From a bacterium (GTDB taxonomy: Bacteria > Patescibacteriota > Patescibacteriia > UBA1558 > S5-K13): a stretch of DNA of 17,616 nucleotides. Position 1 is the stretch's first letter; each line of letters begins with the position of its first letter. Location of the stretch: NCBI GenBank assembly GCA_029555085.1, contig JAKPTO010000017.1, forward strand, positions 1-17,616. Reading direction: 5' to 3'. This document shows, in pieces, positions 13,118 to 17,607 of this stretch. The notes beneath the pieces were generated by a model. It saw nothing but the letters and a program-made list of their open reading frames with translations, did no database searches and had not been told where the DNA came from. A program made the position numbers and the translations under genes.

Positions 13118-15601
13118 CTATTCTATTTCATTAATAATTGGTTGCAAAATTCTAAGTTTTTTCTCTGTGGGGATTACAGCCCATTCAGCAAAGCACCAAC
13201 TTGGATCAATAAAATCAGGATGATTAAATACCCAATACAAATATGGGTGTGCGTCTTGTTCGACATATACCTCTGGTATGTGTTGACCGATATGACTTGT
13301 TAGAACTTCTGGTTTTTTTATTTCTTCATAATCAGTACGGAAAGGATCTTTTACTCGCATAGCAATATTGCGACCAGGTTCACGCTCTATCGGATAATGT
13401 GAATGTGGATCAGTAAGGTAGGGATGTTTATTATACAAAAAGTTAATATTTTTTAAATAAGTACTAAACATTTTATTGTTTTCTCCGAAGCAAAAAGTTA
13501 TTTTATCTTCACTAAAGGTTCCTCCCCATGGCTTATAATCATGTTTAAAGTGATTCCAAAAACCGTCTTTTGTAGCGTCTGTTGTATAGTCATTTCCCAT
13601 TAAGCTAAATGGCCTAAAAATAGTATAGTTTTTTTGATTCATCTGTTTAAAAATTTCAAGAATGGTTTCTTTGTGTTTAGCATACGGCTCTTTAAATATT
13701 TCAGAATTCAGTGGGTTAATTTTTGAATTAATAATATCTTGAAATTCTTTTGAATTTATTTCTGGCAACTCTTTATGTTTTTTAAAATAAACAATTAGTT
13801 TAGCAAAAAATAAATGTGGTAAATATGAACAATCTTGATTGTCGCGTTTTTTATTTTCAAAATCAGGGGTCAATAAAAATGCATCAAAGTTTCCCCCATT
13901 ATAAAAACATTCTAAAAAATTTATAAAACCTCCCATATCCCTTATCCACTCCCTATCATTTAAAAAAGTTTCTATATCAAACAATTTTTGACTTAATATT
14001 TCTTTTTTAAAATAGGTTTTACTATCATCATAAATAGAAGAGAATCCATTAAATACATGATTAAATGTGTAATCTGGAGCATTATTTTGAGATATCACCC
14101 TAACAATATCCGTAATTATTAAATTTTTAACATATTCTATATTTGAATTTTGTTTATAGTTATATTTTTTTTGATAATATGTAAAATCCCCCTCAACATC
14201 TTTTTCTGTTGTATTCAATTTTTTAATATCAGAAAAATCTAAACCCTGAATTGATTCTTTGAGTTTTTCCCTATCTTGCTCTGATAACTGAATCTCATAA
14301 ACTTTATTTCCTTTTATTGAAAATGGATAATCCCCTTGTTCAATAGCTATCTCAGCATTTTTTTTCCAATCAATAGATTCCCAATCTATTTCATAAGACC
14401 AATACTCATCAAATACTAAATTTTCTTTATCCCATTCTACTTGTCTATGTTTTGGAACTTTTTGAAGCTTTTTTTCATATTTAAAAAACGGATATTCATT
14501 GTGTTCAATAATTTCTCTATCTATGTAATTTTCTTTTTTAGCTGAATCTTCTTGATTTATTTCCTTATTTTCAACTATTCTATTATCATTTGATAATTTT
14601 TCTATTATTTCTCGTTTTACCACTTTTTGAACCTCCTGTGAATTTATTATTTCTTTTGAAACATTAAATGCTCTTATTATTTTTTTGGCATCGTGTATGT
14701 CTTCCCTTAACAAACATTCTATGATTCCTTGCTTTATTGCATCCCAGAATGCTTCTTCTGGAACATTAAATTCTTCTTTTATTTCTGTTGCATAATTTAC
14801 ATAACCACCAGATAAAAGATTTATCATCCCCTGCTTTGCTGCTTGTTGAACTATTTCTTCTGGAACATTAAATTCTTCCTTTATTTCTATTGTTCTGTTC
14901 ATATCTCCACGAGATAAGAGATTTATCATTCCTTGCTTTGCTGCTTGTTGAACTATTTCTTCTGGAACATTAAATTCTTCTTTTATTTTCATAGTAATGT
15001 CTATATTGTCAACACCATTTCGATCGCCCATAGATAAGAGATTTATCATCCCCTGCTTTGCTGCTTGTTGAGTTGTTTCCTCTGAAACATTAAATTCTTC
15101 TTTTATTTTTTTGGCTTCGCCTATTATGCGTGAGTAACACTTAGACAACCATTCTATCATTCCTTGTTTTGCTGCATCTTGAACTTCTGATAAATTTATT
15201 ATTTCTCCTGGAATATTAAATTTTTCTTTTATTTCTATGGCTTTTTCGCGTCCCCTAAATAGGCAACTTATCATTCCTTGTTTTGCTACATCTTGAACTA
15301 TTTCCTCTGGAACATTAAATTCTTCTTTTATTTTCATAGTAATGTCTATATTGTCAACACCATATTGATCGTCCACAGATAAAAGATTTATCATCCCCTG
15401 CTTTGCTGCATTTTGAACTTCTGGTAAATTTATTGTTTCTCCTGGAATATTAAATTTTTCTTTTATTTCTATGGCTTTTTCTATTGTATAATAATACTTC
15501 CCAAGTAAACATTCTATTATTTTCTGCTTGACTGCTTCTTGGTCTGTTTCTTGTTCTGTATTTGGAATTGGTATTTTTTCTAACATATTATTTGTTATCA
15601 T
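13118..15601 (-). CDS. Hypothetical protein: N-terminal helical tandem repeats plus ~480-aa C-terminal region (possible ADP-ribosyltransferase-like end domain)
   Basis: 827-aa uninterrupted ORF; no TM or Sec signal evident; alternative start at Met6 (15586). Confidence 0.85.
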   Translation of the reverse strand: MITNNMLEKIPIPNTEQETDQEAVKQKIIECLLGKYYYTIEKAIEIKEKFNIPGETINLPEVQNAAKQGMINLLSVDDQYGVDNIDITMKIKEEFNVPEEIVQDVAKQGMISCLFRGREKAIEIKEKFNIPGEIINLSEVQDAAKQGMIEWLSKCYSRIIGEAKKIKEEFNVSEETTQQAAKQGMINLLSMGDRNGVDNIDITMKIKEEFNVPEEIVQQAAKQGMINLLSRGDMNRTIEIKEEFNVPEEIVQQAAKQGMINLLSGGYVNYATEIKEEFNVPEEAFWDAIKQGIIECLLREDIHDAKKIIRAFNVSKEIINSQEVQKVVKREIIEKLSNDNRIVENKEINQEDSAKKENYIDREIIEHNEYPFFKYEKKLQKVPKHRQVEWDKENLVFDEYWSYEIDWESIDWKKNAEIAIEQGDYPFSIKGNKVYEIQLSEQDREKLKESIQGLDFSDIKKLNTTEKDVEGDFTYYQKKYNYKQNSNIEYVKNLIITDIVRVISQNNAPDYTFNHVFNGFSSIYDDSKTYFKKEILSQKLFDIETFLNDREWIRDMGGFINFLECFYNGGNFDAFLLTPDFENKKRDNQDCSYLPHLFFAKLIVYFKKHKELPEINSKEFQDIINSKINPLNSEIFKEPYAKHKETILEIFKQMNQKNYTIFRPFSLMGNDYTTDATKDGFWNHFKHDYKPWGGTFSEDKITFCFGENNKMFSTYLKNINFLYNKHPYLTDPHSHYPIEREPGRNIAMRVKDPFRTDYEEIKKPEVLTSHIGQHIPEVYVEQDAHPYLYWVFNHPDFIDPSWCFAEWAVIPTEKKLRILQPIINEIE
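14591..15541 (-). repeat. Coding tandem repeat, 8 full units + 1 partial, 34-42 aa
   Basis: Consensus QxAAKQGMIxxL-[variable]-xxIKEEFNVPEE over aa 21-337; also visible at DNA level. Confidence 0.95.
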
Positions 15602-15627: not shown

Positions 15628-17607
15628 TTATTCTACAGAAAGCTTATATTCTGGAAAAACATCAGCAACAATTTGCCTAGATATTGACCTTGGCTCAACA
15701 CCAAATTTCTGGCTTTCACCAAAGATAACTATCCTTTTATTTTGTTCATCTATTTGTAGCCATCCACCACCTAAAGCTTTAAGATCGTATTTTGTAGCAA
15801 TATCTGCATGTTCTCCAAGAGTAGAATCAAAAACAAACTTTAAATTATCATCCTTTGTTGTACCCATGATAAACTTACCTTTCATCCCCACACTTACTCT
15901 TACTTCCATATCATCAAAAAACTTAACACCCTTTTTTCCATGAAATACAACATTAATTGAAGAATCATTGATTGTTATGGTTTTTTCAATATCTAATATT
16001 TCATTCTTTGGAACTTCTAAATATTTTAGATAATCCATTTTAGCAACATCTTTGTATGTTAAATTAGATCCAATTTCCTGGAGCATTTCAAGAAATTTGT
16101 CTCTTCGAGAATCAACATGTCCCATTTCCGTATTATGAACCATTCCAATATACGCTCTCTCTATTAATTCTTTAACATTTTCTAATTCAATTCCGTTTGA
16201 TTGTGCAATTTGTTGTACTTCTTCTATATTCTCCGCATCTAAAGAGTCTTCGCCGAATGCCACACAAAGATTTTCAAATGCTTGTTGTATAATTTCTTTT
16301 TTAATTTCAATTTTTATCCCAAGTTTTTCAGCGGCTTTTAAATTTCTAGAGATATGATAAGCAGCCAGTCCACCTTGTGTTTTATCGGAGGCCTCTGCAT
16401 CAAAAATTTTTTGAAACGAATCTTGTATTTCAAGTTTTATGCCTCTTTCCTTGGCAAATTCTTCTATTTCTTTTAATTTATCGGTTTTATCCCATTGAGC
16501 ATTGTAACAGTATATTTCCTGAAGTTTGTCTTGTGTTGTTTTTCCAAGTTTTATGCCTCTTTCCTTGGCAAATTCTTCTATTTCTTGTATTTCACTAATG
16601 TTATTAGCACTATCAAATATTTCCCGAATCCTGTCCTGTGTTGTTTTTCCAAGTTTTATGCCTCTTTCCTTGGCAAATTCTTCTATTTCTTGTATTTCAC
16701 TAATGTTATTAGCACTATCAAATATTTCCCGAATCCTGTCCTGTGTTGCTTTTCCAAATTCTATATTCATATCTCTTTCCTTGGCAAATTCTTCTATTTC
16801 TTGCATTTTACTAATTTCATTAGCATTATCATATATTTCTTGAAATCTGGCTTGTGTTGCTTTTCCAAATTCTATATTCATACCCCTTTCCTTGGCAAAT
16901 TCTTCTATCTTTTGCATTTCACTAATTTCATTAGCATTATCATATATTTCTTGAAGTCTAGTTTGCGTTGCTTTTCCAAATTCTATATTCATACCCCTTT
17001 CCTTGGCAAAATTTTCTATTGCTTGCATTTTACTATTAGCATTATCATATATTTCTTGAAATCTGGCTTGTGTTGCTTTTCCAAATTCTATATTCATACC
17101 CCTTTCCTTGGCAAATTCTTCTATCTTTTGCATTTCACTAATTTCATTAGCATTATCATATATATCTTGAAGTTTGTCTTGTGTTATTTTAAATTCTATA
17201 TTCATACCCCTTTCCTTGGCAAAATTTTCTATTTTTTTTAAATTCTCAAAACCATTATAACCAAACATACCATAAATTGCTCTTTCAAAAGCCAATTGTA
17301 AAGATTTGCTATCCGGAACTAATTCTAAATTCTTTTTATCTGCTAATTCAATTACCTTTTCTACATCCTCAAATGTATTATTTTCAAGTAATTGATTATA
17401 TGCTCTTTGAAGCACCTCTGGTTCTGAATTTTTTTCTAAATTTATAAGTTCAATACTTTTACCATCTTGAAGCAGAAAATACCCATTATTTATAAATATT
17501 TCTTTTTTTTCGATATTTTCCTGCTTTTCTTGTTTTGCTTTTTCTTGAATTTCCCCCTTTGATTGCTCTAAATTTTTCTTATTAAATATTTGTTCAAAAA
17601 ATTTCAT
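15628..17607 (-). CDS. Helical repeat protein with C-terminal Janus/Ocnus (PHPT1-like phosphohistidine phosphatase) domain
   Basis: 659-aa ORF. The last ~93 aa carry K-F, HADI, LGGG, K.I.IFGES.KFG and FPEY in the order seen in PHPT1/Janus proteins. The start is only 9 nt from the window edge. Confidence 0.8.
   Translation of the reverse strand: MKFFEQIFNKKNLEQSKGEIQEKAKQEKQENIEKKEIFINNGYFLLQDGKSIELINLEKNSEPEVLQRAYNQLLENNTFEDVEKVIELADKKNLELVPDSKSLQLAFERAIYGMFGYNGFENLKKIENFAKERGMNIEFKITQDKLQDIYDNANEISEMQKIEEFAKERGMNIEFGKATQARFQEIYDNANSKMQAIENFAKERGMNIEFGKATQTRLQEIYDNANEISEMQKIEEFAKERGMNIEFGKATQARFQEIYDNANEISKMQEIEEFAKERDMNIEFGKATQDRIREIFDSANNISEIQEIEEFAKERGIKLGKTTQDRIREIFDSANNISEIQEIEEFAKERGIKLGKTTQDKLQEIYCYNAQWDKTDKLKEIEEFAKERGIKLEIQDSFQKIFDAEASDKTQGGLAAYHISRNLKAAEKLGIKIEIKKEIIQQAFENLCVAFGEDSLDAENIEEVQQIAQSNGIELENVKELIERAYIGMVHNTEMGHVDSRRDKFLEMLQEIGSNLTYKDVAKMDYLKYLEVPKNEILDIEKTITINDSSINVVFHGKKGVKFFDDMEVRVSVGMKGKFIMGTTKDDNLKFVFDSTLGEHADIATKYDLKALGGGWLQIDEQNKRIVIFGESQKFGVEPRSISRQIVADVFPEYKLSVE
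16426..17247 (-). repeat. Coding tandem repeat, 105/111-bp units (35/37 aa), 8 FAKER copies
   Basis: Consensus TQxRxQEIYDNANEISxMQxIEEFAKERG(MNIEF/IKL)GK; includes an exact 105-bp duplication 16532-16636 / 16637-16741. Confidence 0.97.

Follow-up and report, generated by a model that had tools for sequence, protein, structure and literature searches.

Two accessory repeat proteins of a Patescibacterium combine diversifying helical arrays with exchangeable C-terminal modules, one of them related to PHPT1

Introduction

Polymorphic toxin and effector systems, as well as the repeat-bearing effectors of Legionella and Ralstonia, combine a conserved leader and repeats with alternative C-termini, occur patchily and possess a recognition part that changes fast. 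Tandem helix-turn-helix repeats of 35-38 aa are also the hallmark of pentatricopeptide repeat (PPR) proteins such as PPR10 and the designed dPPR and cPPR. Removal of phosphate from histidine is associated with two unrelated protein families. PHPT1 (PF05005; the human 14-kDa phosphohistidine phosphatase, PDB 2ai6/2hw4) is a stand-alone protein of ~125 aa and is mainly eukaryotic. The usual bacterial phosphohistidine phosphatase is SixA, which has an unrelated fold and belongs to the histidine phosphatase superfamily. How the ultra-small bacteria of the Candidate Phyla Radiation (CPR)/Patescibacteria act on their hosts is largely unknown, and concrete candidates for such an action are offered by the locus described here. 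It consists of two neighbouring genes, A and B, at one end of a 17,616-bp contig, which was analysed over its entire length (contig C21, hereafter the window) and belongs to a Patescibacterial genome of 1.02 Mb with ~29% GC in 53 contigs; its size and composition and the presence of a DUF5671 gene agree with this placement. The original prediction, made from the sequence of the window, regarded A and B as a polymorphic effector cassette whose repeats bind targets and whose swappable C-termini modify host proteins. On balance, we consider it somewhat probable that A and B are accessory modular proteins joining a repeat recognition array to a C-terminal enzyme and that gene A encodes a repeat-targeted phosphohistidine phosphatase.

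Results

Genes A and B join helical repeats to unrelated C-terminal domains

Gene A (P0002; 15628-17607, minus strand) is an open reading frame (ORF) of 659 aa with a charged N-terminus, a PPR-like alpha-solenoid, a linker and a PHPT1/Janus-Ocnus-like C-terminal domain. Gene B (P0001; 13118-15601, minus strand) is an ORF of 827 aa, of which the start is called at Met6 (822 aa) in other assemblies, and consists of a leader, eight helical repeats of 34-40 aa and a C-terminal domain of ~450 aa. A sequence comparison found no similarity between the two C-termini. Both proteins are acidic (net charge -33 for A and -35 for B), and a Kyte-Doolittle scan detected neither a transmembrane (TM) segment nor a signal-like hydrophobic stretch in A or B (maximal 19-residue means of 0.77 and 0.69 for the two proteins). 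No adjacent immunity gene was seen, as a terminator and proS come directly after gene B. The description of both proteins as helical repeats with mutually unrelated C-termini, lacking TM segment, signal and immunity gene, was hence confirmed.

The C-terminal, beta-rich domain of gene A (15631-15999, minus strand; residues 537-659) belongs to the PHPT1/Janus-Ocnus family as judged from profile matches. The Pfam profile Ocnus (PF05005) matched residues 579-655 with an E-value of 3.9e-10 and 40.2 bits at a cut-off of 23, and the gene A paralogue described below as well as the homologue in genome G018 likewise scored above the threshold. A profile of the module built from five homologues matched the human PHPT1 chains (PDB 2ai6) with an E-value of 2.3e-6. 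The original prediction of a 'pHis phosphatase' at the C-terminus of gene A is therefore supported in the sense of a phosphohistidine-phosphatase-like domain. A word-based homologue search with the module returned same-species clusters only. Among the matches listed, the available texts on bacterial PHPT1 homologs describe no bacterial PHPT1 fusion, and we found no literature joining pentatricopeptide with Patescibacteria.

Repeat arrays diversify and C-terminal modules are shuffled

Gene A has a full-length paralogue of 666 aa on contig C25, where it is followed by rpsB-tsf-pyrH and has no B-like neighbour. Between the two paralogues, the N-terminus (91% identity, dS 0.055) and the Ocnus domain (85%, dS 0.185) are more alike than the repeats (45%, dS 0.62). 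The paralogues are thus mosaics, and the pattern suggests gene conversion at the ends or replacement of the array.

B-type repeats are also found elsewhere in the genome. On contig C12, which measures 1,370 bp and is open at either end, we found a leader and repeats of the B type with 50% identity to gene B. The final 89 nt of C12 recur unchanged at the start of contig C5, an in-frame overlap of 29 identical residues, and the frame is continued on C5 (C5:1-2259) by a C-terminal ORF of 753 aa that is unrelated to the gene B domain. This C5 module has counterparts of 50-66% identity in the C-terminal portions of long frames in the genomes G005 (1933 aa), G030 (1510 aa) and G018 (1152 aa), and is weakly related to a 1264-aa protein of G003 which ends in a GNAT acetyltransferase (Pfam). 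Ahead of the C5-type module, the G005 frame carries about 1,100 aa of B-type repeats and the G030 and G018 frames carry two other repeat types; the N-terminal arrays of the three showed no mutual similarity at E <= 1e-3. Read at the sequence level, the leader and repeats of the B type are combined in this genome with two different C-termini, and one C-terminal module sits behind at least three unrelated array types in relatives. Modular swapping is thus real and represents the best-supported part of the original idea: a B-type repeat is not tied to one invariant C-terminus. As a separate observation, contigs C22 and C23 both end in the same 114 nt that form the upstream part of C12 (1257-1370); there may be two B-type/C5-type genes, the repeat arrays of which were collapsed into one contig.

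A and B are independent accessory genes

We analyzed the distribution of both genes in samples of 60 relatives, 85 genomes of the order, 400 genomes of the phylum and 14 control genomes. The gene A C-terminal module was found in 3/85 other genomes of the order (G004, G018 and G026). The gene B domain was present in none of the 60 relatives and in 1/400 other genomes of the phylum, and PF05005 likewise occurred in one of the 400 other genomes and in none of the controls. Neither gene was found in three congeners. In one of these, G001, the ProRS of which is 88% identical, the place upstream of proS is taken by a divergent ORF of 231 aa, and a search of the whole genome did not find gene A or gene B. 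The locus is accordingly accessory and not conserved core genome, in line with the original proposal.

The genes do not travel together, however, as the proposed 'two-gene cassette' would imply: no B-like neighbour accompanies the paralogue of A or the homologues of A that three other genomes contain. In G018 the genes that come after the homologue are unrelated, the G026 homologue is an Ocnus module without any repeats, and the gene downstream of the G004 homologue encodes a 426-aa protein with no Pfam match, which was rejected as a relative of gene B (hhalign probability 0.1). We conclude that A and B are independent accessory genes and not a conserved functional pair; they are neighbours in this species only and are possibly co-transcribed.

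Two observations concern the gene A homologues. The G004 homologue is the middle one of three consecutive genes (G004:C3 498-800, 964-3117 and 3156-4436) whose products share a similar acidic leader of ~40 aa and then diverge completely; the common leader could serve all three as a tag for targeting or regulation. In G018, the last third of the gene A C-terminal module has another, weak match (E 2.7e-6) at G018:C1:10552-10704 inside a 351-aa frame, which may encode another protein with an Ocnus-like end.

The locus is stable within the species: 16 DNA runs from wastewater, activated sludge and digesters (20 holder entries, 18 studies) contain half or more of its words, and it was near-identical in these runs. 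Contigs of two RNA (metatranscriptome) libraries contain exact matches to unique parts of both genes, which is weak evidence of transcription; parts not covered by such contigs carry no information on expression. Full-length variants are present in the protein collection (587 versus 659 aa; 632 versus 666 aa). Joints indicating repeat-number variation were not found in the contigs of four runs, and the repeat-number variants may be due to assembly collapse. DNA contigs of two runs (X1 and X6) fit the window up to 15617 and 15116, respectively, and then run on unlike the window. Such breaks are as expected from the C25 paralogue and the C12-type repeat gene if the contigs derive from these.

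Would the proteins act on a host?

Host-directed effectors are the alternative that the original prediction had favoured. In its present form it states that A and B are exported, for example via a type IV secretion system (T4SS)-like machine of the Patescibacteria, and that the repeats direct the enzymes at their C-termini to proteins of the host, for instance phosphohistidine relays. The patchy distribution described above fits such a role, and so do the rarity of the PHPT1 family in these bacteria, the concentration of A-paralogue diversification in the repeats and the shuffling of the modules. In addition, the genome holds a VirB4-like gene, and the T4SS of Patescibacteria is presented as probably repurposed for roles beyond conjugation, with no substrate named in the available part of the source (PMC12102498). 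On the other side, A and B have neither a signal peptide nor a TM segment, searches with Pfam and NCBIfam recognised no known domain, trafficking domains included, in their N-termini, an adjacent immunity gene is lacking, and the VirB4-like gene is located on another contig and not near A/B. The genome also encodes possible phosphohistidine substrates of its own, namely two HisKA proteins and NDK; unlike these, HPr was not found in the genome. We therefore regard the effector reading as speculative and rather unlikely. A more specific version is clearly less probable still. In this version A-, B- and C5-type proteins (the latter with a GNAT-like end) are cargo of a T4SS-like machine, their exchangeable solenoids set the host target, and gene A switches off two-component or phosphotransferase system (PTS) phosphohistidine signalling of the host.

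Conserved residues in both C-terminal domains

We wondered whether the C-terminal domains retain features of enzymes. For gene A, we return to the reading of a repeat-targeted phosphatase. His600 (codon at 15808-15810, minus strand) was recognized as invariant in the homologue alignment and, together with the GGG loop, a Lys and a Ser, is conserved in all five gene A homologues. A canonical stand-alone Ocnus protein of 112 aa from another genome of the phylum (75.5 bits) shares the His, GGG, Lys, Ser and a Gly with the gene A module, and its His aligns with His600. The AlphaFold2 model places His600 at the start of the first helix of the C-terminal domain. In PHPT1, His53 acts as general base and His102 is important, according to the available part of PMC11277029. 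We infer from the alignments that His600 is equivalent to the catalytic His53 of the human enzyme.

The C-terminal domain of gene B (13121-14524, minus strand; residues 360-827) represents a rare family without a Pfam model, and its sequence matched nothing in Pfam, NCBIfam or the PDB. When 1.84 billion representatives were searched exhaustively with HMMER, 12 distant relatives were obtained at E <= 0.001. Eleven of these have a length of 336-507 aa and therefore contain the domain on its own, and one has 2021 aa. The family also includes a hypothetical protein from a Parcubacteria metagenome-assembled genome (MAG). None of 15 family members has a consistent Pfam match, and a word-based homologue search with the domain returned itself only. 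In the 15-sequence alignment, Gly94, Thr153, His156, Phe346, Phe353, His426, Pro427, Trp443, Pro452 and Thr453 (domain numbering) are invariant, so that the family possesses two invariant His, along with a mostly conserved Cys; an invariant Asp or Glu was not found in this shallow alignment. The gene B domain is thus a conserved family without annotation.

ADP-ribosyltransferases possess a conserved catalytic Glu. The suggestion that gene B is a 'possible ART' was not supported: there is no family match in Pfam, NCBIfam or PDB, no fold match with a model of low confidence, and no invariant acidic residue in the 15 sequences. ESM Atlas searches with the domain reached scores of up to 0.87 and structure TM values of up to 0.28, all under the tool's own bar, and the sole hint of an ART, a feature score of 0.85 to Arr/DarT clusters, was rated as chance level by the tool.

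The domain is preceded by the B-type repeat array (14573-15472, minus strand; residues 44-343). At the DNA level, Tandem Repeats Finder reported periods of 102 and 234 nt at 14753-14988 and 15043-15481. The repeats matched no Pfam or PDB repeat family, and residues 1-360 have a net charge of -19. As an observation on composition, the GC skew is near 0 (-0.02) at 12501-14000 of the window, which covers the gene B C-terminal domain and the spacer to proS. Elsewhere on the contig it is mostly -0.15 to -0.35, and it is again near 0 at 7001-8500, where a Na/Ca exchanger gene lies on the plus strand. The near-zero skew at 12501-14000 could reflect foreign composition or just amino-acid content.

The gene A repeats resemble PPR proteins in shape

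The alpha-solenoid of gene A consists of paired helices (16075-17421, minus strand; residues 63-511). Its clearest part comprises eight near-identical repeats of 35-38 aa at about residues 122-414 in the protein-level register, and at the DNA level Tandem Repeats Finder detected an array at 16511-17234 with a period of 111 nt, 6.7 copies and 87% matches. An AlphaFold2 model built from seven sequences (mean pLDDT 81) showed the solenoid at residues 63-511, followed by a 4-strand/helix/2-strand/helix domain at 537-658. Foldseek searches of the PDB with this model gave 48 matches at E <= 0.001, and 10/13 of the best rows are described as designed or natural PPR proteins. The best PPR row had an E-value of 6e-8 and a probability of 1.00, but TM-scores of 0.14-0.2 and an rmsd of about 20 A; low TM-scores are expected when the curvature of solenoids differs. 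By phmmer, the repeats matched designed PPRs with an E-value of 2e-6, single stretches giving E-values >1. As modelled, the gene A repeats are PPR-like in shape and form a solenoid of about 11 helical hairpins, and we do not assign them to the PPR family.

Evidence that weighs against catalysis and targeting

Several of our results weigh against the explanation of A and B as repeat-targeted enzymes. The PF05005 match to gene A spans just profile positions 34-108 of 108, and the PDB alignments begin after residue 63 without reaching human His53. Arg78 is important in PHPT1, and in the profile alignment to 2ai6 the gene A family has Trp at human Arg78 and Arg at human His102, while Ser94 is kept. 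Moreover, Janus-family members without known phosphatase activity exist. For the gene B domain, the AlphaFold2 model from the 15-row alignment reached a pLDDT of 50.8, and Foldseek with this model returned 0 matches at E <= 0.001 (best E 3.5). The likeness of the gene A array to PPR proteins is local, as seen from the TM-scores and the single-stretch phmmer values given above, and Pfam PPR models did not match gene A at E <= 1. The join of C12 and C5 is based on the 89-nt identical contig overlap, without a spanning read. Finally, the contigs of RNA libraries mentioned above are no proof that A and B are transcribed.

If the C-terminal domains are non-catalytic, both proteins would be pure scaffolds or adaptors, with their repeats evolving for example under pressure from phages or at the host surface. 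The two replaced PHPT1 residues in the gene A family would agree with this, as would a gene B domain with no invariant acidic residue or recognisable enzyme fold. In the gene A family, however, His600 and the GGG loop are strongly conserved, which speaks against this model, as do the two invariant His and the mostly conserved Cys in B's family, and no PADLOC defence family matched at a meaningful score. We consider the scaffold model improbable.

The similarity to RNA-bound designed and natural PPR proteins, which gave the best sequence and fold matches of the repeats, raises the question of whether gene A might be an RNA-binding, PPR-type protein that brings its C-terminal domain to a specific transcript. 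PPR code residues are drawn from an Asn/Ser/Thr set. The most variable helix-A position of the gene A repeats aligns by phmmer to a position of a designed PPR that we take to be PPR code position 5. At this position gene A has D/A/T and not the Asn/Ser/Thr set, the repeat region (residues 129-420) has a net charge of -18, and TM-scores were at most 0.2. The basic RNA-binding surface and the nucleotide-specifying residues that are typical of PPR proteins are thus not seen. Because the repeat region is acidic and Pfam PPR models do not match, the gene A repeats more likely bind protein than RNA, and RNA targeting appears very improbable. The remaining idea of A/B as a defence system was dropped, since PADLOC hits were sub-20-bit only and driven by the repeats.

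Surroundings of the locus

Genes A and B are separated by a 26-bp spacer (15602-15627, no strand) without a terminator-like hairpin. A terminator-like hairpin with a 14-pair stem and a T tail (12999-13029, minus strand) follows 3' of gene B. It is the single one of its kind in 12700-17616, and as shuffled sequence gave a mean of 1.8, the scan by itself is not significant. Approximately 170 bp beyond the hairpin starts proS (prolyl-tRNA synthetase; 11344-12831, minus strand; Pfam ProRS-C_1, tRNA-synt_2b and HGTP_anticodon), a housekeeping neighbour outside the module. The ORF, hairpin and Pfam searches thereby verified the reported arrangement of two co-oriented ORFs 26 bp apart with their own terminator beside proS.

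Only 9 nt separate the start of gene A from the end of the contig, which places its promoter and upstream neighbour outside the window. Contig C28 (prmC-prfA-rpmE) ends in the same 134 nt as the window, and C25 also ends in a near-identical stretch; because the contig end is shared in this way, the true upstream neighbour of gene A is ambiguous between two paralogous copies. With respect to mobile-element signs, there is no tRNA in the window, and no integrase search was made.

Further observations relate to the rest of the contig. ProRS with a ProRS-C_1 domain (11344-12831) had matches at E <= 1e-30 in only 3/13 other genomes of its own family, and relatives may use a different ProRS type. 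The gene order 3' of proS is unlike that of the congener G001, which has MetRS and a small membrane protein in between. Genes for ribosomal proteins L11 and L1 are usually adjacent; here, a DUF5671 gene (139 aa; 600-1019, minus strand) lies between them. A Beta_propel (PF09826) protein of 720 aa (2422-4584, minus strand) and a DUF2207 membrane protein (8559-10367, minus strand) flank a P-type ATPase and the Na/Ca exchanger.

Discussion

We propose that A and B belong to a lineage-specific class of soluble, acidic proteins in which a rapidly diversifying alpha-solenoid array is joined to a conserved C-terminal module. The array would recognise a partner and the module would act as an enzyme. 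In gene A, the PHPT1/Janus-Ocnus domain may hydrolyse phosphoramidate (phosphohistidine) on the protein that is bound by the repeats, a prediction made from family membership. Gene B would follow the same plan with a different repeat array, fused to the rare ~450-aa domain with two invariant His. Together, the two genes represent a domain architecture that is new and a class of modules that undergo shuffling, and their products are plausibly partner-targeted enzymes.

A rare bacterial PHPT1-family domain is here joined to a PPR-like recognition array, and our data indicate that related genomes exchange both repeat arrays and C-terminal modules. A phosphohistidine phosphatase targeted by repeats would constitute a new type of bacterial regulator even if the proteins had an intracellular role.

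How do these proteins compare with described systems? Over its last ~120 residues, gene A aligns with PHPT1 at the GGG loop, at the strand that contains the Ser and at an aromatic motif near the C-terminus. PHPT1 stands alone, whereas the domain of gene A ends a 659-aa repeat protein, and human Arg78 and His102 correspond to Trp and Arg in the gene A family. SixA, as far as the available text on it goes, would catalyse the same reaction as we infer for gene A, which instead belongs to the PHPT1 family. PPR proteins share with the model of gene A the tandem helix-turn-helix solenoid and provided the best sequence and Foldseek matches; gene A differs from them in lacking a Pfam PPR match, in its low global TM-scores and acidic repeats, and in coming from a bacterium without organelle RNA. 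With polymorphic toxin and effector systems the two genes have in common the conserved leader and repeats with alternative C-termini, the patchy occurrence and the fast-changing recognition part. In contrast to those systems, A and B have no secretion or trafficking domain, immunity gene or recognised toxin domain, and the swapping also runs in the reverse direction, one C-terminal module being found behind several arrays.

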